From Bacillota bacterium (GTDB taxonomy: Bacteria > Bacillota > Dethiobacteria > DTU022), in contig JAAYGO010000215.1 in the NCBI GenBank assembly GCA_012727685.1, positions 1 through 52,785 of the forward strand: DNA of 52,785 nt. The letters run 5' to 3'. This document shows, in pieces, positions 1,597 through 50,325 of the stretch (position 1 is its first letter; each line of letters starts with the position of its first letter). The notes beneath the pieces were generated by a model. The model was not told where the DNA came from. It searched no databases and was given only the letters and a program-made list of their open reading frames with translations. Position numbers and translations under genes: made by a program.

Positions 1597-1657
1597 AGTG
1601 AGGTGCACCCGGTATGGGCTCTAATCTAGTTGACATAATATATTATTTATTGATACG

Positions 1658-1674
1658 ATCGTTTCAGAAACGAT
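1658..1674. promoter_or_regulatory. Perfect 17-bp palindrome ATCGTTTC-A-GAAACGAT; candidate upstream activator site for the sigma-54 activator
   Basis: Exact inverted repeat read directly. Its centre is about 170 bp upstream of the -24/-12 element at 1833-1848, the usual distance for bacterial enhancer-binding proteins. Confidence 0.5.
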
Positions 1675-1832
1675 TTTACTAGTGATTTTCCTCCTAGCAG
1701 TATAGATGAACTGTTCCACTGATACATCCAGTGTTTCAAAAGTGAGAATGTTTTTGGAGCCGCCACCGGGAAAGGGACCGCCATCGCCCCATGATCGGGT
1801 AGAGATAAGACCTTCACAGGCTAAGGGAAAAT

Positions 1833-1848
1833 TGGCACGATCTTTGCT
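1833..1848 (+). promoter_or_regulatory. Sigma-54 (-24/-12) promoter
   Basis: TGGCACGATCTTTGCT matches TGGCAC-N5-TTGC. GG (1834-1835) and GC (1846-1847) are 12 nt apart. It lies about 95 nt upstream of the ATG at 1943, and a sigma-54 activator gene sits at the distal end of the block. Confidence 0.75.
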
Positions 1849-1942
1849 TTATATTCGTATAGGGGGTGGTTTATGGCAAATAAACCCTGCCCAAGTAAAA
1901 TGGCATTATGCTGAATTAAGAAGGAGGTACAAGGAGTAAAAA

Positions 1943-2920
1943 ATGAAGAAGAAGCATGAAAATTTAGTAAAGCAGCTAATTCTTAGAGACGGACCGAAAG
2001 GGCTCTATCCGGAACCTCTCTTCTGGATGGAAGGCAAGGACATGGAGGGATTTAATGCTCATTTTTCCTTCCAGTATGTAAAAAAACCAGGCACTTGCCA
2101 TCCAGTGGAAGGGATGCTTGTACACCCCTATGACGAATGTTTGGTTTTCGCTTCTTTAAATAGAGAGGACATGCTGGATCTCGGTGGAGAAATTTCCATT
2201 GTTCTGGGGGAGGAGCAGGAGAAATACTTGATCAGCGAGCCCTCGGTAGTCTGCATCCCCAAGGGCCTGCCTCATGGGCCGATTAAATACGAGCGCGTGG
2301 ATAAGCCCTTTGTCCATTATACCATTGGGCTAGATCCCGAGTACAAAGCCTCGCCACTAAAAGCAGGGACCCCCACCTCCGGCGGTTCGAAATATAAGCA
2401 TTTAATCAAGAGGCTGGTCACCACATTGCATCCCGGTGCCGACCCGAATGATATTGACGTGGGCAAGGGAAGCGGGATGGGTTATGAGCACGTCGGCGAC
2501 GAAAGAGGGATTTTACATCCGCGGGAACGGGGCATCGGTCCTGGAAACGGCGACAGTGTGGTGTGGCTCTATGGCGCGGACCTGGAGGGATTTGATCTTA
2601 ACTTTACCTGGGGCCATTACAGCGCCTGCGGGAAATGGCATCGCGCCGGTGAAATGCACCAGCACCCCGAGGAGGAGATCCTGATCTTTGTCGGCATGGA
2701 TCCCGACAGGCCGGACTATTTGGGAGCAGAAGTGGAACACGGGATGGGCTATGAATGCGAGCGGCATATCCTCAACACCCCGGGGCTCTACATTTGTCCC
2801 AAGGGATTCCCGCATCTGCCCATGATCACCCGCTGGGCCGATGACCCCTTCTGCTTCTTTGTCGTATGCCTCAGCGGTCACCATGCATCCCCGTGGGTGG
2901 AAGTTGAATTCGACGATTAA
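1943..2920 (+). CDS. Uncharacterised bicupin protein, paralog A
   Basis: AAGGAG RBS 7 nt before the ATG. The two halves of the protein align with each other. The C-terminal half has cupin motifs HQHPEEEILIFVG and PKGFPH; the N-terminal half has VHPYDECLVFAS and PKGLPH. I recognise no named family. Confidence 0.85.
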   Translation: MKKKHENLVKQLILRDGPKGLYPEPLFWMEGKDMEGFNAHFSFQYVKKPGTCHPVEGMLVHPYDECLVFASLNREDMLDLGGEISIVLGEEQEKYLISEPSVVCIPKGLPHGPIKYERVDKPFVHYTIGLDPEYKASPLKAGTPTSGGSKYKHLIKRLVTTLHPGADPNDIDVGKGSGMGYEHVGDERGILHPRERGIGPGNGDSVVWLYGADLEGFDLNFTWGHYSACGKWHRAGEMHQHPEEEILIFVGMDPDRPDYLGAEVEHGMGYECERHILNTPGLYICPKGFPHLPMITRWADDPFCFFVVCLSGHHASPWVEVEFDD

Positions 2921-2960
2921 GTGAAGGAGACATGAAATAAAGGCTGAAGGAGGTTTTACG

Positions 2961-3938
2961 ATGCGCCCGAGATTGCATAAACACCTGGTCAAGCCGTTAA
3001 TAGTGCGTAACGGCCCCGAGGGCCTTTATCCCGAGCCCCTTTTCTGGATGGAAGGCAAAGATATGGAAGGCTTTAACGCCTGCTTTTCATACGGTTTCGT
3101 CAAGAAGCCGGGAGTCTGCCACCCCATGGAAGGGGCGGTGGTGCATCCTTACGATGAATGCCTTGTTTTTGCCTCGACTGATCTGGTAAATTTCCGCAAT
3201 TTGGGTGGGGAAATTTCCATTGAACTCGGCGAAGAGAGAGAAGAGTACGTCTTTAATGAACCAACAGTTGTCTGTATTCCCAAAGGTTTGGTGCACGGCC
3301 CGATTAAATACCGGCGCGTGGATAGACCCTTTGTGCATTACACGATTAGTCTGGCCCCGCAGTACCAGGCTACCGTAATTCCCCCCGGTGAGTTGGCCCC
3401 TGTTTCAAAGGGGACAAAGTATCAACATCTGGTCAAACCATTGATCGATGCGGAGAGAATGAAGAAAAATTTCCAGCGCGGCAGAATCGGCACCAACTTG
3501 GACTATGAAACGGACACTGATGAATATGGCGTGGTGCGAGCGGTGCAAAAGATGGGACCCGGCAATGCCGACAGTTTAGTCTGGCTGTTCGGTGATGATT
3601 TAGAGGGTTTTGAGTTGAATTTTACCTGGGGTCACTACAGCCAGTGCGGCAAGTGGCACCGCAGAGGGGAGGTGCATAGCCACCCGGAGGAAGAGATACT
3701 CATTTTTGTCGGTTTAGATCCTGACAATCTGGAGTATTTGGGAGCAGAAGTTGAACAGGGAATGGGCTATGAGGGGGAAAGGCATATTGTAAATGTTCCT
3801 TCTGCCTATATCTGCCCCAAGGGATTCCCGCATTTGCCCATGATCACCAGGTGGGTGGATAAGCCTTATGGGTTTATCGTCTGCTGCCTGGACGAAGGTC
3901 ACGATTCTCCCTGGGTAGAAGTCAATCTGGATGAATAA
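2961..3938 (+). CDS. Uncharacterised bicupin protein, paralog B
   Basis: Same length (325 aa) as paralog A and colinear with it (LYPEPLFWMEGKDMEGFNA, HPYDECLVFAS, NFTWGHYS.CGKWHR, HPEEEILIFVG, CPKGFPHLPMITRW). Confidence 0.85.
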   Translation: MRPRLHKHLVKPLIVRNGPEGLYPEPLFWMEGKDMEGFNACFSYGFVKKPGVCHPMEGAVVHPYDECLVFASTDLVNFRNLGGEISIELGEEREEYVFNEPTVVCIPKGLVHGPIKYRRVDRPFVHYTISLAPQYQATVIPPGELAPVSKGTKYQHLVKPLIDAERMKKNFQRGRIGTNLDYETDTDEYGVVRAVQKMGPGNADSLVWLFGDDLEGFELNFTWGHYSQCGKWHRRGEVHSHPEEEILIFVGLDPDNLEYLGAEVEQGMGYEGERHIVNVPSAYICPKGFPHLPMITRWVDKPYGFIVCCLDEGHDSPWVEVNLDE

Positions 3939-3995
3939 TGTTTTGGAAGTGCCGTAAGTAAACAAATCAGGTTGAATAAGGAGGAGAATTAATTA

Positions 3996-5567
3996 ATGAA
4001 GCGATTTAAGCTAGTTCTTGCGGTTATGCTCTGTGTCCTATCGTGCTTTTTCTTCCTGGCCGGATGCGGCAGTGATCAGGGCAATGGCAAGGATAGTGGT
4101 GAAGATACCGAAGCTGGCGGCGTCAAATACAGGGAGGAATTAGATGTCATTATTGACAACACGAAAATCGCGATCCTCGATCCTCATAGCCCCGCGGCAG
4201 GCACCAGTTCCGCGACCTGGGCTTTTCAGATGATTTATGACACACTTGTCGCTGATCTGGGTGACGGTCAATTCGGTCCCGATTTGGCTACACGCTGGGA
4301 AACCGAGGATTGGCAGCATTTTACCTTCCATCTCCGTGATGATGTCTATTTCCACAACGGTGAAAAATTGACCGCTGCTGACGTTGTCTACACGGTCGAA
4401 AGGGCCAAGGAAAATCCCGGTTCAGCCGGCCATGATAAGCTATCTATCGTAGAAAGTGTGCAGGCAGTAGACGAGCATACGGTCGAGATGACCCTTCAAT
4501 CCGTCAACGTCGAATTCCTTTACTATATCTCTGATTCGCGCGCCAGCATACTCAATCAGAAAGCTATCGAAGCCGATCCCGAAAAGGGAACCTGGATCGG
4601 GACCGGTGCCTGGACCGTTTCCGATTTTGCTTCCAATGAATATGTAGTATTGGAGGCCAACGAGAATTACTGGGGTGAAATACCGAAGACCAAGAAGATG
4701 ACCCTGAAGTATGTGGCCGAGGAAAGCACCAGGCTCATGCAATTGGAAAACGGTGAAGCGCAGGTTTGTTTCTCCATTAACGCCAATGACTATGACTATG
4801 TGGAAAGTCAAACCGATAAATTTGTTACCTTTCCCTTTACGTCTAACAACAACTCCTATATTGCCTTCAACATGAACGATCCCATTTGCGGCGATCTTAA
4901 CTTTAGAAAGGCGGTCGCTTCCGCCATCGATCGGGAAGAGATGGTGGCCTCTGCTTTTAACGGCTATGGAGAAGTCAATACACTCGGCACCTTCTGGGGT
5001 TTCAGAACGGAATTCAAGAACGAGAACATCCCCATCATTCCCAAAGACCTGGAAAAGGCAAAAGAATATTTGGCACAGTCAAACTATAATGGCGAGACAG
5101 TGGAGATTGTTTCGGCCATACCTGACTTGATTAAAACTGCCCAGATTGTCCAGGCGCAACTCGCAGAGATTGGCATTAATACTACGATTAAGGAGACCGA
5201 CCCTCCCGGAATATCGGCATATGCCACCTATGCGGATAACAAGGCACAGATGATCGTCTATGTGGGTGGAATTAGTTTAAACGCGGGATCAACAAAAGCC
5301 TATTTCTACCCCTACGGCTCCTATAACAGGGCAAGCTACAAAAACGATGAGGTCATCGCCCTGTATGACCTTGCCGTGAGCCAGGCAGACCCTGCGGAGC
5401 GCGAAGCAACCTATCATAAGATTCAAGAAATTGTTGCCGAAGATTTGCCGTATATCAACCTTATGAACACCACTTTTCTGGTTTGCTGCGCCAAAGGAGT
5501 CGAAGGCTTGAAGCTATCGAACCTCGCGTACCATGATTTGACCTATATGTATATGATCGAAGAGTAG
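3996..5567 (+). CDS. ABC transporter substrate-binding lipoprotein, family 5 (peptide/nickel/opine type)
   Basis: Lipoprotein signal ending LAGCGS. Length and overall sequence are typical of DppA/OppA/NikA-type binding proteins. GGAGGAG RBS. Confidence 0.85.
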   Translation: MKRFKLVLAVMLCVLSCFFFLAGCGSDQGNGKDSGEDTEAGGVKYREELDVIIDNTKIAILDPHSPAAGTSSATWAFQMIYDTLVADLGDGQFGPDLATRWETEDWQHFTFHLRDDVYFHNGEKLTAADVVYTVERAKENPGSAGHDKLSIVESVQAVDEHTVEMTLQSVNVEFLYYISDSRASILNQKAIEADPEKGTWIGTGAWTVSDFASNEYVVLEANENYWGEIPKTKKMTLKYVAEESTRLMQLENGEAQVCFSINANDYDYVESQTDKFVTFPFTSNNNSYIAFNMNDPICGDLNFRKAVASAIDREEMVASAFNGYGEVNTLGTFWGFRTEFKNENIPIIPKDLEKAKEYLAQSNYNGETVEIVSAIPDLIKTAQIVQAQLAEIGINTTIKETDPPGISAYATYADNKAQMIVYVGGISLNAGSTKAYFYPYGSYNRASYKNDEVIALYDLAVSQADPAEREATYHKIQEIVAEDLPYINLMNTTFLVCCAKGVEGLKLSNLAYHDLTYMYMIEE

Positions 5568-5614
5568 CTGCGCCTAAGAACTCGTCGGGAAATTGTACTA
5601 AAATCTCAGCCTAG

Positions 5615-5654
5615 GGTGGCGGCAGAAGTACCGGAAGGTCTCGCTGCCGCCACC
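5615..5654 (+). promoter_or_regulatory. Intercistronic stem-loop after the binding-protein gene
   Basis: Perfect 11-bp stem ggtggcggcag (5615-5625) / ctgccgccacc (5644-5654) with no U-tract. The position is typical of mRNA-stabilising or attenuating hairpins that raise binding-protein expression relative to the permeases. Confidence 0.5.
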
Positions 5655-5676
5655 GGTTAAAAATGAGGTGTAATTC

Positions 5677-6633
5677 ATGCTGCGGTATGTCATCCGGCGT
5701 CTTCTCTGGTTAATCCCTGTCCTGCTCTGCGTGTCATTGTTAATCTATGTCCTGATGGATCTTGCTCCAGGAACCGTCATTGACTCGATGATTACGGAAC
5801 AGATGACGCCAGAAGATATCGAGAAGCTAAGGCAGGAGTATGACCTGGATAAACCGGTTATTTATCGTTACGTAAAATACATGTGGGGGTTCTTCCATGG
5901 GGATCTGGGCAAATCCCAGGTGACCGGCTTAAGCGTTTGGGATTCCTTTATAAGCAGGTTTCCGGCTACCCTGAAGTTATCCCTGGTATCCGTTGTATTC
6001 GGCGCTGTACTGGCGATACCGATCGGGATCTTTGCCGCTCAGCGGGCGGGAACGATCTGGGATAACCTTACCACGGGCTTTACATTAATCGGGACTTCCA
6101 TGCCCAGCTTCTGGTTGGGGCTCCTGCTGTTGATTCTATTTGCTTATAAAATTCAGTTGTTTCCAGCCGGCGGCTACCAAGGTCCTTCGAGCTATGTCCT
6201 CCCGGCGATCACCAGTGGCTTGATGATGACGGCGATCACAGCGAGGCAGACGCGTTCCAGCATGCTCGAGGTCTTGCGGGCAGATTACCTGCGCACGGCG
6301 CGTGCTAAAGGTGTCCCGGAGAGATTGGTTATCAGGAGACACGCTCTGAAAAACGCGTGGATTCCCATTCTAACTACCATTGGCATGGGTTTAAGCCGTT
6401 TCCTGGCCGGATCAGCAGTGATCGAAACGGTATTCTCCTGGCCCGGCATTGGCCGTTTGACTGTCGAAGCGGTTTCGCAACGCGATGTAACCCTCGCTTG
6501 CGGCTGCGTGATCATGACCTCTATCCTCTACGTGATTATCCTATTGATTGTGGACCTGCTCTATGCCTTTGTTGATCCGCGTATCAGAGGAAAATATGCG
6601 TCCGGCAGTCGGAAAAGGAAGGTGACGGCATGA
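5677..6633 (+). CDS. ABC transporter permease (DppB/OppB-like)
   Basis: Multi-TM protein with the conserved loop RTARAKGVPERLVIRRHALKNA. Confidence 0.9.
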   Translation: MLRYVIRRLLWLIPVLLCVSLLIYVLMDLAPGTVIDSMITEQMTPEDIEKLRQEYDLDKPVIYRYVKYMWGFFHGDLGKSQVTGLSVWDSFISRFPATLKLSLVSVVFGAVLAIPIGIFAAQRAGTIWDNLTTGFTLIGTSMPSFWLGLLLLILFAYKIQLFPAGGYQGPSSYVLPAITSGLMMTAITARQTRSSMLEVLRADYLRTARAKGVPERLVIRRHALKNAWIPILTTIGMGLSRFLAGSAVIETVFSWPGIGRLTVEAVSQRDVTLACGCVIMTSILYVIILLIVDLLYAFVDPRIRGKYASGSRKRKVTA

Positions 6634-7517
6634 GTACAGCAACAGATATGCTTGTTTCCAGGAAATATGCTAAAAGAAGTGGCTTGGCTGAAATTTGGTA
6701 CAGGCTGAAGACCAACAAGGGTGCTATCGCCGGTTTTACGATTATCGTTATCATTCTGTTGATCACCCTCTATTCTATCTTGTTCATTGATTTTGAAGAG
6801 GTTACCGCCATGAACGCGGCAAACCGCCTGCAGCCGCCCAGCCTGGAACATCCTTTCGGTACAGATGACATGGGTCGAGATCTGTTCCTAAGAACATTGT
6901 ACGGCTCGCGCTACTCCCTGCTCATCGGTGTCGGCGGGGTTTCCATTTCCCTGATCATCGGATTGATCCTCGGTTCCGTAGCCGGATATTTTGGCGGCCT
7001 AGTTGATGATCTGATCATGCGCTTTTCGGATATTTTGGCTTCCGTACCAGTATTTTTAATGGGCATGGTTATTGTTACAGTTTTGGGACAAAGCCTCCAG
7101 AACCTGATCATTGCTGTTGGCGTTACCGCCATCCCTGAATTTACCAGAATCACCAGGTCTTCTGTTCTCGTCGTTCGAAACCAGGAATTTGTCGAGGCAG
7201 CCAACGCCATTGGGATGTCAAACCTGGCGATCATCTTTACCCAGGTTGTTCCTAACGGTCTCTCTCCGATCATTGTTACCGTGACCTCGCGGATCGGCGC
7301 CGCCATCATTGAGGCGGCCGCTCTTAGTTTCCTTGGATTCGGCATTCCGGTGCCCCACCCTGAATGGGGTCTTCTCGTTTCCGAAGGGCGGAACTACATT
7401 CGCACGGCACCGAATCTTACCTACTTCCCGGGCCTCTTTATCATGATCACGGTCTTTGCGTTCAATATACTAGGTGACGGTCTGCGTGATGCGCTCGATC
7501 CGAAGCTCAAGAAATAG
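6630..7517 (+). CDS. ABC transporter permease (DppC/OppC-like)
   Basis: 4-nt overlap with the upstream permease gene. Conserved FVEAANAIGMSNLAIIFTQVVPN loop. Multi-TM protein. Confidence 0.9.
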   Translation: MSTATDMLVSRKYAKRSGLAEIWYRLKTNKGAIAGFTIIVIILLITLYSILFIDFEEVTAMNAANRLQPPSLEHPFGTDDMGRDLFLRTLYGSRYSLLIGVGGVSISLIIGLILGSVAGYFGGLVDDLIMRFSDILASVPVFLMGMVIVTVLGQSLQNLIIAVGVTAIPEFTRITRSSVLVVRNQEFVEAANAIGMSNLAIIFTQVVPNGLSPIIVTVTSRIGAAIIEAAALSFLGFGIPVPHPEWGLLVSEGRNYIRTAPNLTYFPGLFIMITVFAFNILGDGLRDALDPKLKK

Positions 7518-7526
7518 GAGGTGAGC

Positions 7527-8576
7527 ATGATGGGCAGTGAAATCAACGATCGAACAGTGCAGGACAACAAAGAGTTGGTGCTTGAGGTAGAAGACCTGAT
7601 TGTGCATTATGTCCTCCAGGAGGAGACAGTGGAAGCGGTAAACGGTGTCAGTTTTTCTCTAGAAAGAGGAAAAACGATCGGGTTGGTGGGTGAAACCGGT
7701 GCGGGAAAAACGACGACCGCTTTGGCGATCATGAATTTAGTTCCCGATCCCCCTGGTGTAATCAAGAACGGGACGATCACCGTGTGCGGGCACAAGATGC
7801 TCGACCTTTCAGCAAATCAGCTTGAGAAAATACGCGGTAAAGATGTTTCCATGATCTTTCAGGACCCCATGACATCACTGAACCCGGTGCTCACCGTCGG
7901 CGATCAGATTGCCGAAAGCGTCATGCTCCATGAAAACCTTTCTTATTCCAAGGCCTTTAAGCGTGCACAGGAAATGTTAGAGATGGTAGGCATACCTGGC
8001 ACCCGCGCCACGGAGTATCCCCATCAGTTCTCCGGCGGCATGAAGCAGCGTGTAGGGATTGCCATTGCCCTGGCTTGCAACCCCAAGCTTTTACTAGCGG
8101 ACGAGCCGACCACGGCGCTGGACGTGACCATACAGGCGCAGGTTCTGGATATGATTGATGATCTCAAAAGAGAGTTAGGCACCGCCCTGGTCATGATCAC
8201 GCACGACCTTGGCATTGTAGCCAAAACCTGCGACCTGGTGGCAGTCATGTATGCAGGACGGATCGTCGAATATGGTACCCTGGAAGATGTTTTTGACCGG
8301 ACGATGCATCCCTATACCGAGGGGCTTTTCAACTCCCTTCCTGATATCAGTAACAGGAAATCCCAATTGCAGCCCATCCCCGGCCTGATGCCTGACCCGA
8401 CAAACTTGCCCCGGGGTTGCGCTTTTGCGCCCCGCTGCCGCTACGCCACCGCTGCTTGCAGGGAAGAACAGCCAAGCAGGCGCGAGGTGAGCGAGACTCA
8501 CACGGTTTACTGCAGCGCTTATGATGACCCGAATTTCCAGATCGAGAGAACGAGGGGGAGAGGCGGAAATGGCTAA
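7527..8576 (+). CDS. ABC transporter ATP-binding protein (DppD/OppD-like)
   Basis: Walker A GETGAGKTT, signature FSGGMKQR, Walker B LLLADEPT, C-terminal oligopeptide-type extension (CAFAPRC). ATG 7527 (or 7530) sits behind AGGAGG 7516-7521; the track ORF opens at GTG 7521. Confidence 0.9.
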   Translation: MMGSEINDRTVQDNKELVLEVEDLIVHYVLQEETVEAVNGVSFSLERGKTIGLVGETGAGKTTTALAIMNLVPDPPGVIKNGTITVCGHKMLDLSANQLEKIRGKDVSMIFQDPMTSLNPVLTVGDQIAESVMLHENLSYSKAFKRAQEMLEMVGIPGTRATEYPHQFSGGMKQRVGIAIALACNPKLLLADEPTTALDVTIQAQVLDMIDDLKRELGTALVMITHDLGIVAKTCDLVAVMYAGRIVEYGTLEDVFDRTMHPYTEGLFNSLPDISNRKSQLQPIPGLMPDPTNLPRGCAFAPRCRYATAACREEQPSRREVSETHTVYCSAYDDPNFQIERTRGRGGNG

Positions 8577-9555
8577 AGCACTTTTCCAGGTACGCAATTT
8601 AAAGAAGTACTTCAAAACCTCCAGGGGCGTTGTCCATGCGGTTGATGATATCTCCTTCGACATTGAGGAGGGGAAAACACTTGGCATTGTCGGTGAATCC
8701 GGGTGTGGAAAATCTACCACCGGCCGGTGCCTGATCCGCCTGATTGAGCCTACCTCCGGGCAGGTTTTCTACCGGGACCAGGATATTTGCCAGCTCAGCC
8801 GGGCTGAGATGAAAAAGCTCCGCAAGGAAATGCAGATTATTTTCCAGGATCCCTATGCCTCCCTCAACCCGAGAAAGTCGGTGCTCCAGATCATTGCGGA
8901 GCCCTTGCTCTACAATAAAATTATGCCCGGTGCCGACAAGTTTGCTATTGAAAAGCGTGTCCTCGAACTAATGGACAAAGTTGGTCTTGCCGAGCGTCTA
9001 ATCAACACCTATCCTCATGAACTGGACGGCGGGCGCCGGCAACGGATTGGTATCGCGAGGGCGCTGGCAATGGAACCTAAATTTATTGTCTGCGATGAAC
9101 CTGTTTCCGCCTTGGATGTTTCGATACAGGCGCAGATATTGAATCTGCTTAAAGAACTCCAGCGTGAATTGAGCCTGACCTATGTCTTTATTACGCACGA
9201 TCTTTCTGTTGTGAATCATTTTTCAGATGACATCATCGTAATGTATTTGGGACAAATCGTGGAGAAAGCACCAGCAGACGAGCTCTTTGAGAACCCGTTA
9301 CATCCGTATACACAGGCGCTTTTATCGGCGATTTTAGTCCCTGCGGTCGGAGCCAATCGCGACAGGATCAAATTGCGCGGGGAGCTTACCTCACCGATTG
9401 ACCCGCCGCCGGTATGCCGTTTTGCCAAACGGTGTAACTACTACAATCAAGATTGCGCCGCGGGTGTGCCTCCGCTTTTAGAGATAACGCCCGGCCATTT
9501 CGTAGCTTGTCATCGTATCAAACCGGGTTCTAATACCCTGGTGGAAGCAAATTAA
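8569..9555 (+). CDS. ABC transporter ATP-binding protein (DppF/OppF-like)
   Basis: Walker A GESGCGKST, signature LDGGRRQR, C-terminal CRFAKRC. The MAKALFQVRNL start at 8569 overlaps the upstream stop by 8 nt; the track ORF opens at 8521. Confidence 0.9.
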   Translation: MAKALFQVRNLKKYFKTSRGVVHAVDDISFDIEEGKTLGIVGESGCGKSTTGRCLIRLIEPTSGQVFYRDQDICQLSRAEMKKLRKEMQIIFQDPYASLNPRKSVLQIIAEPLLYNKIMPGADKFAIEKRVLELMDKVGLAERLINTYPHELDGGRRQRIGIARALAMEPKFIVCDEPVSALDVSIQAQILNLLKELQRELSLTYVFITHDLSVVNHFSDDIIVMYLGQIVEKAPADELFENPLHPYTQALLSAILVPAVGANRDRIKLRGELTSPIDPPPVCRFAKRCNYYNQDCAAGVPPLLEITPGHFVACHRIKPGSNTLVEAN

Positions 9556-9695
9556 TTTTACCGGGAGAACGGCCGGGTGGAAAATGAAAGAATGATGCCT
9601 TTTCCCCTGAGCGAAATATCCCAATTAAATAGATTACCGGCCAAGAATCATCTTAGTCTTGCCGCAGACATTGCAAATGAAGGAGAGTGCTCACA

Positions 9696-10859
9696 GTGAA
9701 GTATCGCCATTTTGGCAAGACGGAATGGAAGATATCCGCCCTGAGCCTGATTATAATGCCCTTATCCGCCATTGAAGAGGATCCAGCGGCTTTAAACATT
9801 AGTGCAATGAGTAAAATCATCCGCTATGCGATTGATGGCGGCGTCAATTACCTGGATCTTGGATATCCGTACTATATGAAACAGTCGCAGGATTTTTATG
9901 CACAAATTCGCCAGGCTTTGGCAGATGGCTACCGGGAGAAGATCAAAGTAGCCCTTCGCCTGCCTTCTTTACTAATTCGTTCTCCGCGCGACTTTAACCA
10001 CTACCTCAACGAACAGATGCAGCAGGTCTGGCTTAAACAGGTTGATTTTTGCCTATTGGAGGGATTAAACCGTGAAACCTGGCCCAAGATGAAAGAGCTT
10101 GGAGCCATCGCGTGGGCCGAGCAAGCCATGCGGGAGGGCCGGATTAAGCGCTTAGGCTTTATTTTCCATGATGATCATCAATTTTTAAGAAGTATCATCC
10201 AGGCCTATGACCACTGGGCTGTAGCCCAGTTTCAGTACAGTTATATGGATTACAAGCATCATCCGGGTCTAAGCGGCCTGCAGTTCGCTGCCCAGCAGGA
10301 CTTACCCGTGATCACCGAGGATCCATTTAAAGGCGGCTGGCTGTTGAAGGAACTGCCGGAGGAGGCAGCAGCCCTGCTGGCCGGGGCCAAACAAAAGCGT
10401 ACCTTAGCTGAATGGGCGCTGCTGTGGTGCTGGAATCACCCTGAGATAGACAGTGTAATGGCTGAGATGACCAGCTTGCAGCAGGCCAAAGAATACCTGG
10501 CCCTGGCAGACAAAGCCGAAACCGGCATGCTCGAAGTTAATGATCTTTTATTGCTAACCCGGGTCAGGGAAGCCTACCAAAAAAGGCGGGCCGTGCCCTG
10601 CCCAACCTGTTATTGTTGCATGCCCTGTCCCCAGGGGATCGATGTGCCGCGAATTATTGAACTCTATAACGAGGCCTTAATGTTTAAGGATCCTAGGCAG
10701 CCGCGCTATTTTTACCGGGTGGAAAATCATCAGCCTGAAAAGTGCCATGAATGTGAACGCTGTATGCAAGCCTGCCCGAGAGGCTACCCCACCATTGAAT
10801 TGCTGAAAAAAGCTGAGCTGCTATTTTCAGGAGATACTTTCAGTAACTGCACGGATTAA
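9696..10859 (+). CDS. Aldo/keto reductase-family oxidoreductase with a C-terminal 4Fe-4S ferredoxin-like domain
   Basis: N-terminus VKYRHFGKTEWKISALSL is typical of AKRs. The C-terminus has two Cys clusters (CPTCYCCMPCPQG and CHECERCMQACPRG). GTG 9696 lies 9-10 nt after GGAG; the track ORF opens at 9687. Confidence 0.8.
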   Translation: MKYRHFGKTEWKISALSLIIMPLSAIEEDPAALNISAMSKIIRYAIDGGVNYLDLGYPYYMKQSQDFYAQIRQALADGYREKIKVALRLPSLLIRSPRDFNHYLNEQMQQVWLKQVDFCLLEGLNRETWPKMKELGAIAWAEQAMREGRIKRLGFIFHDDHQFLRSIIQAYDHWAVAQFQYSYMDYKHHPGLSGLQFAAQQDLPVITEDPFKGGWLLKELPEEAAALLAGAKQKRTLAEWALLWCWNHPEIDSVMAEMTSLQQAKEYLALADKAETGMLEVNDLLLLTRVREAYQKRRAVPCPTCYCCMPCPQGIDVPRIIELYNEALMFKDPRQPRYFYRVENHQPEKCHECERCMQACPRGYPTIELLKKAELLFSGDTFSNCTD

Positions 10860-11266
10860 TTAGTGGTGATCTAAAAACTCACCCCAAAACAGCGCGTTGC
10901 CTGGTTTGGCATTAGTAACGACTACTGGAATCAACCACCGGCGCCGACGGGATCGTGCGATCAACACGATCGCGACCAGGCATCCCGGAAATGCTTCTAA
11001 AAGCAGCACACTGTTTCAAGGGAATCCAGCCTTTGCGAGCTTTTTGGTGATACCAAATAACTTCGGCAAAGGTGCTGGATTTCTTTTTTATTCCATTATT
11101 GTTGTATGTTTTAAATGAGAACCAACCGGTTTAAACACCCTAAAAGTTTGACAGAGTTTTTGAATTAACGCGATATTTTGGCCGCGTGTTCAGCTGATCG
11201 TAAGCGCTGGCTTTTCCGTTCTTCTTTAAAATCATTTAGGAATGCCTGCGACCGCGATTGTTTTCC

Positions 11267-11295
11267 TTGACTGGACTTCGCGGAAAGTGTTAAAT
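11267..11295 (+). promoter_or_regulatory. Sigma-A-type promoter for the activator gene
   Basis: TTGACT (11267-11272), 17-nt spacer, TTAAAT (11290-11295), with a TG at the extended -10 position. Confidence 0.5.
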
Positions 11296-11332
11296 TAAAA
11301 AAGGTTCATGTATTTCTGAGAGGGGGAGAGAT

Positions 11333-13285
11333 ATGCTTCCATTGGCTTTACATTCACCACATCTGGAGGATACGATTCGGCAATTAGAGAACTCCTGGCT
11401 GCAGATGATCGAAAAAAACCGTATAGACCGCAAGATTCGCCCAGTAATTGCCGAGTCCTGGAAACGTAGTTTAAAATACGGCGTCCCCTTTGATAAGCAT
11501 CTTCCCCCTTCAACGAATTTTGAAAATGAGTTGCAGCGTTATGAGCAAATATTGGAGATTGCCAATCCAATCATTAACAGGTTCAGGCAGGATATTGAAG
11601 ACTCGGGATATTTTATTATGGTTAGCGATGCTGAAGGTTTAATCCTGAGGCTTTACGGCAAAACCGATCAAATCGAAAAAGTGGCTAACCAGCACAACAC
11701 CATGCCGGGGATTGACTTCTCCGAGCGGAATAAGGGGACGAATATCATTGCCCTTTGTTTAAACAACAATTCTTCGAATCAAATCTTCGGCGCTGAGAAT
11801 TTTGCTGTGATCGGCCACTCCTGCGTAGCTTCCGGCGCTCCGTTGAGAGATCCCTTAACAAATAGGGTTGTCGGCACCGTTGCGATTAGCAGTAATTATA
11901 ACATCCTGCAGCATTCCCATTCTCTGATTATGGTGAAAGCCATCGGATTTGCAATCGAACAGGCGATGGGCCATTATATCATGCAAAAATTTCAGGATTA
12001 TGAAAATAAATATTTTAATTCTGATTATGGTTTAATCATCATCTGCGATAGCGGTCAAATCGTTTCCTTGAATACCAGGGCCATGGAGTTATTAAAGCTC
12101 GACTATCCAAAGCCGGAAAATCTGAATGAGATTACCAGTGTTCCCGAACTTAACCAGATTTTATTCGAGGCCAAGACCAGTAACAGCTCTTTAACCAGCG
12201 GTTGGACTGTGGCGGGAAATGGGAAACATGACCTGGAGGTTACCGCCGTCCCGATCAGGTATGGATTGCTAAGAACCGGTTTTGTATTGGTCGCCCGCAA
12301 AAATAGAATGATCGTCATAGAGCCAAACAAGACGAAGACAGTAATGGAGTCCGCTGAAGAAAGAAAAGAAAAAGCTTATTCTGCTTTCCTGACCAAATCT
12401 CCACGGATGCATGCAATGCTGGAGACAACTAAGCGTGCCGCCCTATCCAGCTCGAATATTCTTTTGCTCGGCGAAAGCGGAACCGGTAAAGAGCTGTTGG
12501 CCAAAGCCATCCACGATTACAGTCCGTACAGCGAAGGTCCCTTTGTCCCGTTGAATTGCGGCTGTATTCCCAGGGATTTAATTGCCAGTGAACTGTTCGG
12601 CTATACCAGGGGATCTTTTACCGGTGCGGCAAAAACCGGGAAAAAAGGGAAGTTCGAAATCGCCGCGGGGGGCACCCTGTTCCTGGATGAAATCGGCGAT
12701 ATGCCCTTAGATATACAGGTGGCGCTGCTGCGGGTTTTAGAGGAACGGATTGTCTATCCCATCGGAGCTGATAAGGGGGTACCTGTTTCCTGCCGGGTGA
12801 TCGCCGCGACTAATCAAGACCTTCTACAGGCCGTTAAAGAGGGTAATTTTCGGTCTGACTTATATTATCGCCTGAATGTGCTCAATATACGGATTCCGCC
12901 TTTGCGGGAGCGCAGGGAAGATATTCTTTTCCTCGCCGCATATTTTTGTCGGCAATATGGACGGAAAATGAGTGATCTGGATCCCCAAATTCGGGAGATG
13001 TTTTTAAGCTACCCCTGGCCGGGCAATGTGCGTGAATTGAAAAATACCATTGAACGGCTGGTCTGCTTCAGTAGCGGCGGGCCAATCACCAGGGAGTTGC
13101 TGCCGGATGAAATCCTGGCCTTTCAACAAACGGCAGACTTGACTTTAAGCGAGGCCTGCGGCCTGTCAGAACAGGAGCAAATTAAAAAGGCTTTGTCTGA
13201 GACCGGCCATAATGTCTCCGAAGCGGCGCGGAAGCTGGGCATCTCCAGATCCACTTTATACCGGAAAATGAAAAAATATCAATAG
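11333..13285 (+). CDS. Sigma-54-dependent transcriptional activator (AcoR-like enhancer-binding protein)
   Basis: Central AAA+ domain: [23 protein letters not shown] (GAFTGA variant), ESELFGY-like SELFGY. C-terminal Fis-type HTH ([24 protein letters not shown]). About 330-aa N-terminal sensory region with an AcoR-like ESWKRS motif. Confidence 0.9.
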
Positions 13286-13357
13286 CCTGGCGGGCAATTT
13301 TGGGGGGAAGCCATGGGCGCGATGCCCTCGCCGGCTGGTATACTGGCCTGGCGCCTG

Positions 13358-13399
13358 GCCGGCCCTCGGAAAGGCGGCCTTGTTTGGCCGGCTTTTTTT
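13358..13399 (+). terminator. Intrinsic terminator after the activator gene
   Basis: gccggcc (13358-13364) / ggccggc (13386-13392), with an inner gcggcc-ttgttt-ggccggc hairpin, followed by T7 (13393-13399). Confidence 0.65.
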
Positions 13400-13464
13400 A
13401 TGGGCAAAATATGGTTGGGCCTTTGGAGGCGGAAAATGAGCTTTAACAGCGGGAGGGATGGCGT

Positions 13465-13716
13465 TTGCGCCAAATCATGTTGTGTCTTGCCGCTTTGCTC
13501 GCGGCGCTGCTGTTGCTTTATGCCGGTTTAAATGTGGCGGAGCGGGGCGTGCACGAGCTGCTGGCGCTGGAGCGGCCGGTGGCCGCCTTCACTTTGCGGC
13601 GCGGCCTGGAGGGGAGATTCGAAATTACCTTTGGCGGCTCTAGCTATTTAGTGAATTTCGGGCAGATCGTTGAAAGGCTCAAGGCATGGGGGGCGCAGCT
13701 TTCGTTGACTTTTTAA
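13465..13716 (+). CDS. Small membrane protein, possibly YqxA-like (DUF3679)
   Basis: TTG start 6 nt after GGGAGGGA. One N-terminal TM helix. In Bacillus a small protein, yqxA, follows spoIIP. The family assignment is from memory only. Confidence 0.5.
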   Translation: MRQIMLCLAALLAALLLLYAGLNVAERGVHELLALERPVAAFTLRRGLEGRFEITFGGSSYLVNFGQIVERLKAWGAQLSLTF

Positions 13717-13749
13717 GCAAGCCTTTTTCAGTTTTTTATTCTGAGATTC

Positions 13750-13778
13750 TTGACAAAAACCCCGCCTGGTGGTATTTT
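13750..13778 (+). promoter_or_regulatory. Sigma-A promoter of the hrcA operon
   Basis: TTGACA (13750-13755), 17 nt, TATTTT (13773-13778), preceded by TGg (extended -10). Confidence 0.7.
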
Positions 13779-13788
13779 GGAAGAAGCG

Positions 13789-13815
13789 TTAGCACTCTCC
13801 ACGTTAGAGTGCTAA
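13789..13815. promoter_or_regulatory. CIRCE operator (HrcA binding site)
   Basis: TTAGCACTC-N9-GAGTGCTAA, an exact match to the CIRCE consensus, directly downstream of the promoter and upstream of hrcA. Confidence 0.95.
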
Positions 13816-13838
13816 TAAAAGGCGCGGGGTGTAAGCCA

Positions 13839-14873
13839 ATGAGCGAGCTCAGTGAGCGGAAAAAACGAATTCTGAAAGCTGTGGTCTTGAATTTTATCAA
13901 GTCCGCCGAACCGGTCGGTTCACGGACAATCGCTCGCACGTACCGGATTGGACTCAGTTCCGCTACCATCCGCAACGAAATGGCCGATCTGGAGGAGATG
14001 GGCTATCTCTCCCAGCCGCACACCTCCGCCGGGAGAATCCCTTCGCAAAAAGGATACCGCTATTTTGTCGATCATCTCATGGAGCCCGGCAAGTTAAGCG
14101 AAGAAGAAGAGATGAAGATCGCTCATTTTCTGGGCCTTGAAAAGATGTGCGAGATCGAAGAGATCATTGTCAGTGCAGCCCGGGTCCTTTCAGAGATTAC
14201 CAACCAGACCTCTTTGATCATGGGGCCCCAGTTCAAAAAGAGCGCCTTCAAGCAACTGCGCATTTTGCCCCTCGATGAAAAGCGGGGCCTGGTGGTGCTG
14301 ATCACGGACACCGGTTTTATCAAGAACAGGATCATCAACCTGAACCAGACTCTCTCGCCGGTGGAGCTGCAGCAGGTGGTCAATTATCTCAATCAGCGGT
14401 TGAGCGGTTTAACGATCGACCAGGTTACCAGCTCTCTGATCAACGAACTGAAGCGAGATCTTTTCCGCCGGCTGGAACTGCTCGAGCAGGCCATCATCCT
14501 GCTCGAGGAAAGCCTGAAAGAAGAGCAGCAGGTGCGGGTATTCCTGGGCGGCACCTCTAATATATTAAACCAGCCGGAGTTCAGGGATGTGGATAAAATC
14601 AGGCGGATGCTGGCCCTTTTTGAACAGGAATCGCTGCTTTTCGAGATCCTTGAAGAGCACCTCGGCGACGATGGCGTGGTCGTGAAGATCGGGACGGAAA
14701 ATCGCTATGCGGATATCCAGGAATGCACCCTGGTCACCGCCACCTACAAGATTAACAACAAGAACATCGGCACCCTGGGGGTTCTCGGGCCAACCCGAAT
14801 GAACTATAGCCGGATCATCGGTGTAGTGCGATGCGTGGTGGATAAACTAAACCAGAGCTTGAGCTCCTCCTGA
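13839..14873 (+). CDS. hrcA: Heat-inducible transcription repressor HrcA
   Basis: N-terminal winged helix (RKKRILKAVVLNFIKSAEPVGSRTIA). Sits at the head of grpE-dnaK-dnaJ. ATG 13839 lies downstream of CIRCE; the track ORF opens at 13686. Confidence 0.95.
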   Translation: MSELSERKKRILKAVVLNFIKSAEPVGSRTIARTYRIGLSSATIRNEMADLEEMGYLSQPHTSAGRIPSQKGYRYFVDHLMEPGKLSEEEEMKIAHFLGLEKMCEIEEIIVSAARVLSEITNQTSLIMGPQFKKSAFKQLRILPLDEKRGLVVLITDTGFIKNRIINLNQTLSPVELQQVVNYLNQRLSGLTIDQVTSSLINELKRDLFRRLELLEQAIILLEESLKEEQQVRVFLGGTSNILNQPEFRDVDKIRRMLALFEQESLLFEILEEHLGDDGVVVKIGTENRYADIQECTLVTATYKINNKNIGTLGVLGPTRMNYSRIIGVVRCVVDKLNQSLSSS

Positions 14874-35251: not shown

Positions 35252-36073
35252 ATGTTCAGCAATCAAGCTTTGCTGGCCGCAGCCCGGGCCGCCCGGGAGA
35301 GGGCTTACGCCCCCTATTCCGCTTTTAAAGTGGGCGCCGCCTTGCTGACGGAGGAAGGGCGCCTCTTTACCGGGGCTAATATCGAAAACGCTTCCTATGG
35401 CCTCACCATCTGCGCCGAGCGTACGGCTGTAGCGGCGGCGGTTAACGCCGGCTGCCGGCATTTTAAGCGCATCGCCATCGTTGCCGATTGCGCGCCGCCG
35501 CCGGCGCCCTGCGGCGCCTGCAGGCAGGTCCTGGCGGAACTGGCACCGCGGATTGACGTGGTAATGGGCAACCTGCACGGGGCCGTTGTGGAGCACAACC
35601 TTGCCGTGCTGCTGCCTGACGCTTTCCGTGCCGATCAGCTTCGACTGGAGGCGGGGGGAGACCCCGCCGAGGCGGAAGAGTGGCGCCTGCCGCTCAACAT
35701 GAACCCGATCGGGTATGTGGAAAACGACTTTCGCGAACCGCGCGCTGTCCCTAAGAATTACCGCGAGCTGCTCTCCCGGATCGTGATCGCCCCGGATCTG
35801 GAGGAAGGCCTCTATCGCATCGAGGAAGAGCCGCGCCTGATCGTCATCGCTTACCTGCACCGCTCGCGGGGGTATGCGCTGAAGGAGGAGCGCCGTGGCC
35901 GGGGCAGTGCCGTGTACGGTGTCTTTGCCTGCCGGACTTCCCAGAGGCCCAACAAGCTGGCGTTAACCGAGGTGGAGCTGGTCAAGCGGGAGGGTAATAT
36001 CCTTACGGTTAGGGGGCTGGACTTGATTAACGGCACCCCGATCCTTGACTTAAAGCCCGTGATCGCCGGGTAA
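35252..36073 (+). CDS. cdd: Cytidine deaminase fused in frame to a TrmO/YaeB-like (UPF0066) domain
   Basis: Residues about 1-128: Cdd (CAERTA, PCGACRQV, LLPDAF). Residues about 147-273: PIGYVENDF, GVFACRTSQRPNKLAL, GLDLINGTPILDLKPV, typical of TrmO. No stop codon between the two parts. Confidence 0.8.
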   Translation: MFSNQALLAAARAARERAYAPYSAFKVGAALLTEEGRLFTGANIENASYGLTICAERTAVAAAVNAGCRHFKRIAIVADCAPPPAPCGACRQVLAELAPRIDVVMGNLHGAVVEHNLAVLLPDAFRADQLRLEAGGDPAEAEEWRLPLNMNPIGYVENDFREPRAVPKNYRELLSRIVIAPDLEEGLYRIEEEPRLIVIAYLHRSRGYALKEERRGRGSAVYGVFACRTSQRPNKLALTEVELVKREGNILTVRGLDLINGTPILDLKPVIAG

Positions 36074-46960: not shown

Positions 46961-47192
46961 TGCGCATGCCCATCATCATCCGCAATCCGGCCGCATCGAA
47001 TTTCTATATTTTGGCAATAATAAGGTTGTCCTGTGCAGAATGTTAAATTATTTTTAGAAAGCAGGAATCAACCGGGGATTGTAGAATATAATGTAACACT
47101 AAAAATGTACTTATTGCGAGGGGAGGATATTTCCCACAAGAGCATTGGATAGCTAATCTAAAGGGAATTGTCCGGAGGGAGTTGTCCAGGGT

Positions 47193-47223
47193 GCCTCGTC
47201 TGCGTATTAGAGATGAGGCTTTT
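47193..47223 (+). terminator. Terminator-like hairpin about 40 nt upstream of dnaG
   Basis: gcctcgtct (47193-201) / agatgaggc (47211-19) with one G-U pair, followed by TTTT. Confidence 0.4.
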
Positions 47224-47258
47224 CATTATCATGTCCGTAAAAAAAATAATGCTGGAAG

Positions 47259-49086
47259 GTGTTGGCTTTGTCCCAGGGGATACCGGAGTCCGTTATTGAC
47301 GCCATCAGGCAGCAAACCGATCTGGTCAGTCTGGTCGGCGAATATCTGACCCTGGAAAAGAGGGGGAAAGACCTGGTTGGGCTTTGCCCCTTTCACCATG
47401 AAAAAACCCCTTCTTTCACGGTATCGCCGGATAAGCAGTTGTTTTATTGTTTCGGCTGCGGTGCCTCCGGCAACGTGTTCAGCTTTATCATGAAGCTCGA
47501 AAACCTTACCTTTCCCGAAGCGGCCCGGCTATTGGCCGCACGGGCGGGGATCAGGATTCCTGAACGGAGCAAGGCACCGGCCGGGCAAGATAGTGTAAAG
47601 GAAAAGTTGTATGCCATGAACCTGTTGGCGGCCCGGTATTATCACCACCAGCTTATTAACACTGCAGGTGGAAAAAAAGCGCTCGAATATTTGCGAGAAA
47701 GAGGAATTGGACGCGCTGCCAGCGAAATGTTTATGCTGGGGTACGCCCCTGAAGGTTGGGACAACCTTAAGTCGTTTTTCGTAAAAAAAGGCTATTCCGA
47801 GCAACTGTTGATCAAGGCAGGCCTGGTTACGCCACGGGAAAAAGGCAGCGGTTGTTACGATCGATTTCGGAACCGCTTGATCTTTCCGATTATGAACATC
47901 GGCGGGAAAGTAGTCGGGTTTGGAGGCCGGACTCTTGAAGAGGGGGGCACGGCAGGCCCAAAATATCTTAACTCACCGGAAACTGCCGTCTTTGAAAAGG
48001 GCACGGTCCTCTACGGATTAAACCTGGCCCGCGATGCCATCAGGCGGGAGAAAACAGCGGTTGTGGTTGAAGGTTATACCGATGTGATCGCCGCTCACCA
48101 GGCCGGGATCAAGAATGTGGTTGCCTCCCAGGGCACGGCTTTAACCGCGGCCCAGGCCCGGTTGCTGCGGGCCCAGGCTGAAACGGTGGTTATCGCCTAT
48201 GATGCGGACAGTGCCGGGGAGAACGCCACCTGGCGGGGCCTGAAAATACTGCAGGATGCCGGCTGTTTTGTGCGGGTCGCTGAATTGCCGGCGGGCAGCG
48301 ATCCCGACAGCCTGATCAGGACAGGTGGCGTGGCGGCATTTGAGAAGCTGCTTAAAAGCGCGCGCTACCTGCTGGAATACCAGCTCGACATTCTCCGGCG
48401 CCGTTATAACCCGGCGGAACCGGAAGGCCGGCGGCGTTACATGGAAGAGGTTTTGGGCTTGCTCAGCCAGGTTTCCAACCGGCCGGAGCAGGACTTTTAC
48501 CTGAAAAAGCTGGCCGAAGATGTTGGAGTTTCCGAAGTGGTTTTACGCGCCGAGCTGAGTAAGCGCTGTCAAAAGGGCCGTGGCGTTAATAATCTTCCGG
48601 TAAAAGATCAAACTAATAATATTGATCGATTAGAGATCAATCCAGCCGAAAAGATGCTGATTTCCTTGATGCTCCAGGAAAACGAACTAATCAATTTGGC
48701 CCGGCAAGCTCTAAAACTGGAAGATTTTGAACACGATACCCGGAAAGTAGTGGAAGCAATCTGGAGCCTGGAAGAGAAATGCGGCGCGGTCAGCGGCGAA
48801 ATGTTGATCGATTTATTCGCAGATGCGCAGCTGCATGCGTTGATTACCGGGCTGGCAACAGACCCGAGCTTACAGGAGTTGGACGCGGAACAGGCTAAAC
48901 GCGCCGCCGATGACTGCATTGACAAAATTAAACAGAGGAAGTTGGCCCGCCGGCGGCAGGAGTTGCTAAGAAAATTGAAAGATATGAAATTGAATGATCA
49001 GGCCAGAATCTTACTTCGGGAGCAGTGGCAGATGATTACCGGTAGCAATCGCAGCCCCTACCGTTCCGGAGGAGGAGAGGATTTTA

Positions 49087-49094: not shown

Positions 49095-50229
<1,135 letters not shown>

Positions 50230-50278
50230 AGGATTAAGGGCGATGAAAATGGAAGAAACATTTATTGCTCTAAAACTC

Positions 50279-50307
50279 TTGACTGCTGATCTTTACTCGG
50301 GTATAAT
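50279..50307 (+). promoter_or_regulatory. Sigma-A promoter of tRNA-Asn
   Basis: TTGACT (50279-84), 17 nt, TATAAT (50302-07). Confidence 0.7.
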
Positions 50308-50325
50308 ATCTATTGCCGACAAGGT

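Follow-up and report, generated by a model that had tools for sequence, protein, structure and literature searches.

A gene block between spoIIP and hrcA

Contig JAAYGO010000215.1 of a Bacillota bacterium (Dethiobacteria, DTU022; assembly GCA_012727685.1) was analysed over positions 1 to 52,785, hereafter the window. Between spoIIP and a small open reading frame (ORF) located 5´ of hrcA, it carries an 11.9-kb block (1486 to ~13440) of co-directional genes, all on the plus strand, as are the flanking genes and the other sequence features of the spoIIP-hrcA interval described below unless stated otherwise. The block opens with two paralogous bicupins, bicupin A (325 aa; 1943–2920) and bicupin B (325 aa; 2961–3938; 64% identity to A), which belong to an uncharacterised family without a Pfam model and were recognised by a fold model and invariant metal ligands. 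They are followed by a family-5 solute-binding lipoprotein (SBP; 3996–5567; PF00496 SBP_bac_5, 1.4e-76; lipobox LAGC), two ATP-binding cassette (ABC) permeases, which are OppB/NikB-like (5677–6633; PF00528 and PF19300, BPD_transp_1) and OppC/NikC-like (6630–7517; PF00528 and PF12911), and two ABC ATPases, which are OppD-like (7521–8576) and OppF/DppF-like (8521–9555) and both match PF00005 and PF08352 (ABC_tran and oligo_HPY). The in-frame ATG at 8569, which has a ribosome-binding site and overlaps the stop codon of the preceding gene, is the probable start of the OppF/DppF-like ATPase. An aldo-keto reductase (AKR)-fold TIM-barrel protein with a C-terminal 2x[4Fe-4S] ferredoxin-like domain (9687–10859; PF00248, 8e-13; Fer4_9) and a sigma-54 enhancer-binding activator (11333–13285; PF00158, 4.3e-65; AAA_lid_14; HTH_8, 6.6e-16) complete the block.

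The original prediction, which was drawn from the letters of the sequence, had described this co-directional block, and all of its parts were found at or very near the positions assigned to them. It had also held that no characterised pathway combines these parts. None was found by Pfam, NCBIfam, PDB sequence or literature searches, and PMC Creative-Commons papers and bioRxiv yielded no characterised system with this gene combination or with the AKR/Fe-S family. Our reading, to which we assign a probability of about one half, is that the block is an acquired, self-regulated uptake-and-conversion operon, which combines an inducible importer with an O2-independent metal-cupin step and an Fe-S-linked redox step.

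Bicupin and AKR-like genes occur as a conserved pair

Scanning one genome per species for bicupins returned 152 relatives. Loci were drawn from the best 80 of the 152, and the neighbourhood counts cover 82 non-redundant loci. The best 80 all come from metagenome-assembled genomes (MAGs). They are mostly Dehalococcoidales, and also include Desulfobacteraceae/Thermodesulfobacteriota, Acidobacteriota, Gaiellales/Thermoleophilia, Moorellales, Syntrophomonadaceae, Family XIII and one Bathyarchaeia. An AKR/Fe-S homologue is present at 76 of the 82 loci, on the same strand as the bicupin at 75. The gap between the two genes is at most 300 nt in 68 loci, and the order is bicupin followed by AKR in 69 of 71 close pairs. 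The wider gaps include transporter insertions, which are of the ABC type in the window and in L006, a close relative that carries the block, and tripartite ATP-independent periplasmic (TRAP) systems in L019, L055 and L058; in L043 the gap is 1.9 kb, and no transporter was identified. The pairing recurs in a relative that falls into a separate 50%-identity cluster, where the bicupin again has both an AKR-like gene and a TRAP system as neighbours. Many anaerobic phyla share this deeply conserved module of two genes, bicupin and AKR/Fe-S, which the original prediction had missed. Only in the window and its closest relatives is the module found together with the sigma-54 activator.

Other genes recur around the module: a 323-aa short-chain dehydrogenase/reductase (SDR; 27 loci), a 151-aa mono-cupin paralogue (21 loci), MarR with MATE/MFS pumps, and URO-D/MtaA-like and SnoaL-like proteins. 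About 15 loci, spread over four phyla, have an Opp-type importer in or beside the module, and the SBPs of these systems are only 26–28% identical to that of the window; TRAP and Liv-type ABC importers also recur. The pump-associated loci would fit a detoxification or stress module, in which the pair would render a reactive carbonyl, quinone or phenolic compound harmless, with the importer of the window being a secondary acquisition or scavenging the same compound. The neighbours of the pair in Dehalococcoidia are a divergent MarR with a MATE pump, an MFS pump, an ABC exporter and a flavodoxin-like reductase; AKR-fold enzymes often detoxify carbonyls, and activators of the AcoR/DhaR/RedR type sense carbonyls or quinones. 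However, an ABC or TRAP importer lies in or beside the module in Bacillota (the window, L006, L055 and L058), Desulfobacterota and Actinomycetota, and also at distant homologues, and catabolic systems typically have a dedicated high-affinity importer that is under positive, inducible control. We regard the detoxification module as unlikely and prefer an uptake-and-conversion operon.

Three further arrangements were observed. In a Desulfobacterota MAG (L001, 6096–12189), the module is expanded to a bicupin, a C_GCAxxG_C_C protein, a Fer4/CCG protein (DsrK/HdrD-like), DsrC, a second bicupin, a 64-aa ORF and the AKR, which hints at a link to DsrC/heterodisulfide-type electron transfer. In L090 and L091, a distant bicupin without an AKR partner lies between a Bac_luciferase-like oxidoreductase and a DUF169 protein, in the vicinity of a Liv-type ABC system and an iron-containing alcohol dehydrogenase, and of Amidohydro_2 in L090. 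In four different samples (L093–L096), contigs stop ~100–190 nt 3´ of the AKR-like gene, and the L006 contig stops inside it, which suggests a repeat or a strain-variable junction.

The bicupin is an unrecognised member of the cupin fold

Bicupins A and B have no match in Pfam (even at E ≤ 1) or NCBIfam, either singly or, where so searched, as a 45-sequence profile, and no PDB sequence match was obtained by phmmer or with the 45-sequence family profile. An AlphaFold2 (AF2) model was built from the 45-sequence alignment. It contains two β-barrels (predicted local distance difference test, pLDDT, 89.5; predicted template modelling score, pTM, 0.89). Foldseek matches this model to OxdC, MncA, seed globulins (glycinin), salicylate 1,2-dioxygenase and quercetinase with a probability of 1.0, E ~1e-14, 11–14% identity and a template modelling (TM) score of ~0.5. 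The earlier identification as bicupins is thus right at the fold level.

The C-terminal barrel carries the invariant residues H239, H241, E245 and H291 (HxHxxxE...H) within the motifs GEMHQHPEEEILIFVG and PKGFPH. Compared with the cupin motifs 1, G(X)5HXH(X)3-4E(X)6G, and 2, PXG(X)2H, the C-terminal domain has the complete 3-His/1-Glu site, whereas the N-terminal barrel shows a variant site formed by H61, E65 and H111 plus H53. The two-jelly-roll architecture and the HxHxxxE...H motif of the C-terminal barrel are shared with OxdC, MncA, quercetinase YxaG and the salicylate and gentisate 1,2-dioxygenases, but the window bicupin differs from the known bicupin metalloenzymes in having an obligatory genomic partner, the AKR/Fe-S protein. 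In contrast to OxdC, which has a complete Mn site in both barrels, its N-terminal barrel lacks the first His; the identity to OxdC is 11–13%, and there is no Cupin_1 match. The incomplete N-barrel site and the missing Cupin_1 match speak against membership of the oxalate decarboxylase/oxidase group. The lineages that host the bicupin are generally held to be anaerobes, and O2-dependent chemistry is therefore unlikely.

The family is large. Its homologues fall into 565 clusters at 90% identity, all unnamed or 'hypothetical', with 58–65% identity. In a library of 1.84 billion proteins clustered at 50%, the core family forms one cluster, of which bicupin B is the representative, and a profile search of the 1.84 billion representatives revealed a halo of 951 more distant relatives. 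Nine of the distant relatives were tested and showed no Pfam domain, and thus no bridge to a named family. Among the distant homologues, P0389 is an enoyl-CoA hydratase (ECH_1) domain fused to a single cupin barrel of the bicupin family.

The original prediction had proposed that the two bicupins act as a heteromer. Most loci contain a single bicupin and about one quarter contain tandem copies, and both window bicupins are similar to the 'first-copy' type found elsewhere. On these grounds, the idea that A and B form a conserved heteromer was rejected; judged by their sequences, the two are a lineage-specific duplication of one type.

The AKR-like protein has lost AKR catalytic residues and gained two Fe-S motifs

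The AKR-like protein scores 48.5 bits against PF00248 (cutoff 24), and its AF2 model has a pLDDT of 85.5. Foldseek aligns the model with AKR11C1, AKR14A1 and Tm1743 at a TM score of ~0.75 when normalised to the target and 0.6 on the query. The (α/β)8 barrel is shared with the AKR11/AKR14 and Tm1743 NADPH carbonyl reductases, as are the Asp and Tyr of the catalytic tetrad (Asp57 and Tyr62 in an alignment to Tm1743 with 37 homologues). In contrast, the window protein has an extra domain of ~90 aa with two CxxCxxCxx(x)CP motifs. Although the Fer4_9 and Fer4 Pfam matches are weak (1e-4), two motifs of the CxxCxxCxxxCP type are present, and the eight cysteines (C305, C308, C311 and C314; C353, C356, C359 and C363) are invariant in 37 sequences. 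Foldseek found no solved structure that combines an AKR barrel with a 2x[4Fe-4S] domain.

The remainder of the Asp-Tyr-Lys-His tetrad is lost. Over the 37 sequences, the Lys column reads S13/T12/N6/R2/K2 and the His column G28/A4/E3/H2, with G24 in the next column. The C-terminal NAD(P)H-binding motif is replaced as well: IPKS...R...N aligns to VSDMS...Q266...N, in which Asp and Gln replace Lys and Arg. A new invariant set, H161, D162, Y184, M187, D188 and E212, is found instead. The original prediction had pictured an AKR with a ferredoxin-like tail that carries out a reduction step. The barrel and the Fe-S motifs stand, whereas a simple NADPH reduction is doubtful because two catalytic residues, Lys and His, have been lost, as has the NADPH motif.

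A predicted sigma-54 promoter and three terminators delimit the putative transcription units

The predicted -24/-12 promoter, TGGCACGATCTTTGCT (1833–1848; consensus TGGCAC-N5-TTGCW), is present 95 nt 5´ of the first ATG. It is the single match to this consensus in the 52.8-kb window, for which 0.07 matches are expected (at least one match in 6 of 100 shuffles), and it is conserved in L006 at 2692–2706. An exact TGGCAC-N5-TTGC on the minus strand at 304–318, inside spoIIP, lacks the final W and a downstream gene and is probably a chance match.

An upstream regulatory region (1626–1745) contains two blocks conserved with L006, each of which holds one set of TGATAC...GTTTCA inverted half-sites (1651–1666 and 1720–1738). 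These half-sites are putative activator binding sites (upstream activating sequences). The promoter scan also returned a sigma-70-like site, TTGACA-18-TACGAT, at 1630–1659. A perfect 17-bp palindrome, ATCGTTTCAGAAACGAT, lies in the same region at 1656–1672 and is not conserved in L006.

The terminators predicted after spoIIP and after the activator gene both fold convincingly. The former (1567–1597), at the left edge of the block, is a hairpin with a U-run (-22.1 kcal/mol, z -5.5); at its position, relatives have a 50–64-nt spacer and no terminator. The latter (13368–13399; -23.8 kcal/mol, z -3.6) marks the right edge. A third, long hairpin with a U-run (11018–11092; -33.9 kcal/mol, z -4.4) closes the structural operon before the activator gene. 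bicA, bicB, the SBP gene, the two permease genes, the two ATPase genes and the AKR-like gene would form one transcript, which runs from the sigma-54 promoter to this strong terminator. The activator gene is preceded by a sigma-70-like promoter, TTGACT-18-TAAATT with TG (11267–11296), and TTTCCTTGAC...AGTGT.A.AT is kept upstream of the L006 activator gene despite the inversion there. An Rfam search of the block found no riboswitch or other RNA.

The activator matches DhaR over its full length in NCBIfam, and PF26965 (MimR_N) is on record for a protein identical to it in L097, the corresponding locus of a second sample. These two matches bear out the earlier assignment as an AcoR-like sigma-54 activator, more exactly of the AcoR/DhaR/MimR kind. 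Walker A is intact, Walker B reads LFLDEI and the C-terminus carries HTH_8. The loop is GSFTGA, with one substitution relative to the GAFTGA of other sigma-54 activators. The N-terminal sensor has no solved-structure match. GAF-PAS activators of the RedR1 kind are released by small effectors (PMC10084136). The block shares with the aco, dha, mim and resorcinol red operons, which are served by AcoR, DhaR, MimR and RedR, the GAF/PAS-type sensor, the AAA+ domain, the Fis-type helix-turn-helix, the upstream inverted repeats and the TGGCAC-N5-TTGC promoter, whereas its target genes are unrelated to the enzymes for acetoin, dihydroxyacetone, acetone or resorcinol. A paper on the sigma-54 regulons of Clostridiales mentions neither cupins nor AKRs.

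The block is an insertion and was probably acquired

The left backbone flank is spoIIP (64–1485; PF07454 SpoIIP, 7.9e-57; TIGR02867). In three relatives (L086, L087 and L088), whose HrcA is 83, 79 and 77% identical to that of the window, SpoIIP, an 86–105-aa ORF, HrcA, GrpE, DnaK and DnaJ are contiguous and the block is absent; upstream of SpoIIP lie IscR and IscS, and NifU as well in L086 and L087. L097, whose HrcA is 100% identical, has a junction of activator, small ORF and hrcA with a layout identical to that of the window. The closest carriers of the block are L006, a Bacillota digester MAG, and L098, with bicupin A 92–93% identical. In both, the activator gene (77% identical) is inverted, so that it lies upstream of the bicupins and is divergent from them, and the gene beyond it in L098 is Wzy_C/O-antigen-ligase-like, not spoIIP. 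The similarity between the window and L006 starts at ~1624, right after the spoIIP terminator.

The composition also differs. The G+C content is 0.496 in the block and 0.573 in the rest of the window, and the mean G+C at third codon positions (GC3) is 0.581 in the nine block genes versus 0.717 in 18 backbone genes (Mann-Whitney p = 8e-5). The block is therefore more AT-rich than its flanks, as had been proposed from hand counts of 21/60, 24/60 and 36/60 G+C, which were exactly correct on recount. Three lines of evidence, namely the empty locus in the three relatives, the different context in L006 and L098 and the atypical GC3, agree with the earlier view of an insertion: the block is a real insertion and was probably acquired horizontally.

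The block edges carry a repeat. The 3´ end of spoIIP recurs in degenerate form at 13303–13351 (compare 1407–1455; 71% identity over 49 nt), colinear with the terminator pair 1568–1596 and 13370–13398, which are 76% similar. The local alignment score of 32 compares with a maximum of 28 in 2000 shuffles and in 391 control windows. The repeated spoIIP end and terminators are only suggestive of a scar of insertion or recombination. A clean target-site duplication was sought at the block edges, and only this degenerate repeat was found. The sole tRNA in the window, tRNA-Asn, is at 50326, and a tblastn search for a plasmid origin against 72,556 plasmids gave no match.

Some observations weigh against acquisition: the block contains no integrase or transposase ORF, and clean direct repeats are missing. 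Together with the small sample of three relatives at the locus, they would fit a block that is ancestral between spoIIP and hrcA and was lost in the sampled relatives. However, the GC3 is strongly unlike that of the 18 backbone genes, the nearest carriers hold the block in another genomic context with a rearranged activator, the bicupin is ~60% identical to homologues in other phyla including archaea, and the right junction contains the degenerate spoIIP copy. An ancestral block is therefore very unlikely, and horizontal acquisition is retained below.

The importer and its possible substrates

The importer predicted earlier, with a family-5 binding protein, two permeases and two ATPases, was found with all five components, which form a complete PepT-type set including two oligo_HPY ATPases. 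The binding protein begins with MKRFKLVLAVMLCVLSCFFFLAGCGS, in which LAGC is the lipobox. The system resembles the Opp/Dpp/Nik (PepT-family) importers in having the same five components, a lipoprotein SBP and oligo_HPY tails, but it lies below every NCBIfam cutoff for peptide, nickel, opine and glutathione systems. The SBP falls far under every equivalog cutoff (NikA, 140.7 vs 393; Opp5A, 157.8 vs 600; CntA, 126.8 vs 800), and the best NCBIfam match of the OppB/NikB-like permease is the nickel permease Opp2B (321.8 bits vs a cutoff of 350). The nearest solved structures of the SBP are 5u4o, AapF, Lmo0135, AgaA, AccA and NikA, the ligands of which differ widely.

A peptide- or opine-like substrate had been proposed and remains a guess. 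In this case, an Opp/Dpp-type system would import a di- or oligopeptide or an opine-like conjugate, which the bicupins would cleave. The combination of SBP_bac_5 with oligo_HPY ATPases is consistent with this, and the solved relatives of the SBP include AgaA and AccA (opine/agrocinopine) and DppA (dipeptide). However, the block has no peptidase, opine oxidase or opine dehydrogenase, and the peptide equivalogs of NCBIfam are all far under their cutoffs. The enzyme pair is elsewhere linked to TRAP or Liv-type importers or to family-5 SBPs that are 26–28% identical to that of the window; orthology of the binding protein across loci was rejected at this identity. Peptide or opine utilisation is accordingly rather improbable.

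The second alternative is the uptake of nickel, cobalt or a metallophore, with the bicupins as cytoplasmic metal-binding or metal-releasing proteins. The best NCBIfam matches of the SBP and permeases are NikA/Opp5A, CntA and the nickel-cobalt systems Opp2B/Opp1C, and the Mn-binding bicupin MncA ranks among the best structural matches of the window bicupin. However, no score reaches an equivalog cutoff, such importers are normally controlled by repressors instead of a GAF/PAS sigma-54 activator, and most genomes hold the bicupin-AKR pair without a Nik-like transporter. We consider metal uptake highly improbable and favour the import of an organic solute.

TRAP and Liv-type systems usually transport organic or amino acids. 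This transporter spectrum and the neighbours of the module (SDR, mono-cupin, MarR, URO-D/MtaA-like and SnoaL, with Amidohydro_2 and DUF169 near distant homologues) hint at an organic acid. The substrate may be a small organic acid, perhaps a (hydroxy/methoxy)aromatic acid that derives from plants or lignin, or a similar acid; on this slender evidence, such an acid is favoured over a peptide.

Flanking backbone and other features of the window

The right backbone flank is a small conserved membrane-protein ORF (13465–13716). It had been called yqxA-like: it occupies the yqxA position and is homologous to the ORF found there in L086, L087 and L088, but it has no Pfam match, whereas the hrcA product next door is assigned to PF01628. 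lepA and hemN, which the original prediction had placed before hrcA in Bacillus-like Firmicutes, are not part of the spoIIP-hrcA interval in this lineage. A sigma-70-like promoter of hrcA, TTGACA-17-TATTTT with TG (13750–13778), precedes a perfect controlling inverted repeat of chaperone expression (CIRCE), TTAGCACTC-N9-GAGTGCTAA (13789–13815), located 5´ of hrcA and also found in L086. hrcA (~13839–14873; PF01628) is followed by grpE, dnaK and dnaJ. The listed ORF (13686–14873, 395 aa) overlaps the small upstream ORF; because HrcA of the relatives is only 342–346 aa long, the true start is the ATG at ~13839 instead of 13686. The HrcA homologues with a source name come from MAGs called Dethiobacter sp., Dethiobacteria, Bacillota or Clostridia and from one Candidatus Limnocylindrales, with at most 83% identity.

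The other 34 kb of the window are ordinary Bacillota backbone (rsmE, mtaB, nfeD, floA, yqfD, phoH, a 7TM-HD protein, era, recO, pyruvate phosphate dikinase, dacF, dnaG, sigA and tRNA-Asn). One 273-aa ORF (35252–36073) contains a cytidine/deoxycytidylate deaminase (residues 4–98) and TrmO_N (residues 169–271), and is either an unusual fusion or two genes joined by the ORF call. A 694-aa protein (44816–46900) contains Fer4_20, Pyr_redox_2 and Fer4 domains and ends in FlpD/MvhD. It resembles a fusion of MvhD with a flavin Fe-S oxidoreductase of the NfnB/HdrA kind, and is possibly a ferredoxin-linked electron-bifurcation component of the host. Stretches of low G+C (0.48–0.49) outside the block occur at 47001–48000 and 50001–52000, near dnaG and past tRNA-Asn.

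A model for the operon

In the uptake-and-conversion operon that we propose, the activator would bind the TGATAC/GTTTCA sites 100–180 nt upstream. It would sense a small effector, probably of the carbonyl type or a pathway intermediate, and then remodel the sigma-54 holoenzyme at the promoter. The ABC system would import an organic solute. One or both bicupins would then catalyse an O2-independent, divalent-metal-dependent step, such as an isomerisation, lyase reaction, decarboxylation or hydrolysis. The likely catalytic site is the 3-His/1-Glu site of the C-terminal barrel, and the N-terminal barrel has the variant His/Glu site. The AKR-fold protein may perform a coupled redox step, in which electrons would arrive through the two [4Fe-4S] clusters from ferredoxin or a similar donor, not from NADPH. 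The bicupin and the AKR/Fe-S protein would constitute the functional core, to which different lineages appear to have attached different importers.

Several points weigh against this reading. No Sigma54-domain protein (rpoN) is present among the scanned ORFs of the window, so that the sigma-54 dependence of the operon cannot be confirmed from it. The SBP and permeases score best against nickel/metallophore systems, although under the cutoffs. The block contains no substrate-specific enzyme such as a kinase, peptidase, CoA ligase or hydrolase. Many Dehalococcoidia loci hold the module beside MarR and efflux pumps, where detoxification fits as well as catabolism. The functions given here to both core families are deduced from sequence and structural models, and the Fe-S-linked redox role of the AKR-like protein from the residues lost and gained.

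The frame of the operon is familiar: regulation by a sigma-54 activator and transport by an ABC importer, encoded on a small acquired islet. Its central enzymes are unusual. Sequence searches of Pfam, NCBIfam and PDB all miss the bicupin family, yet its members are ~60% identical across bacterial phyla and one archaeal class, and its conserved combination with the AKR-like protein points to an undescribed conserved anaerobic reaction. A bolder and less likely possibility is that the bicupin and the AKR-fold 2x[4Fe-4S] protein make up an unrecognised O2-independent two-component enzyme system, in which a metal-cupin step would be coupled to a redox step of the TIM barrel linked to ferredoxin. 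Such a system would have spread horizontally through uncultured anaerobes (Dehalococcoidia, Desulfobacterota, Acidobacteriota, Actinomycetota, Bacillota and Bathyarchaeia) and would act on a compound that is abundant in anoxic settings such as sediments, peat and digesters, for instance a (hydroxy)aromatic from lignin or a related organic acid. The window offers a handle on the substrate of the module, which is accompanied here by its own binding protein and by an activator that senses an inducer; either protein could be screened for ligands.

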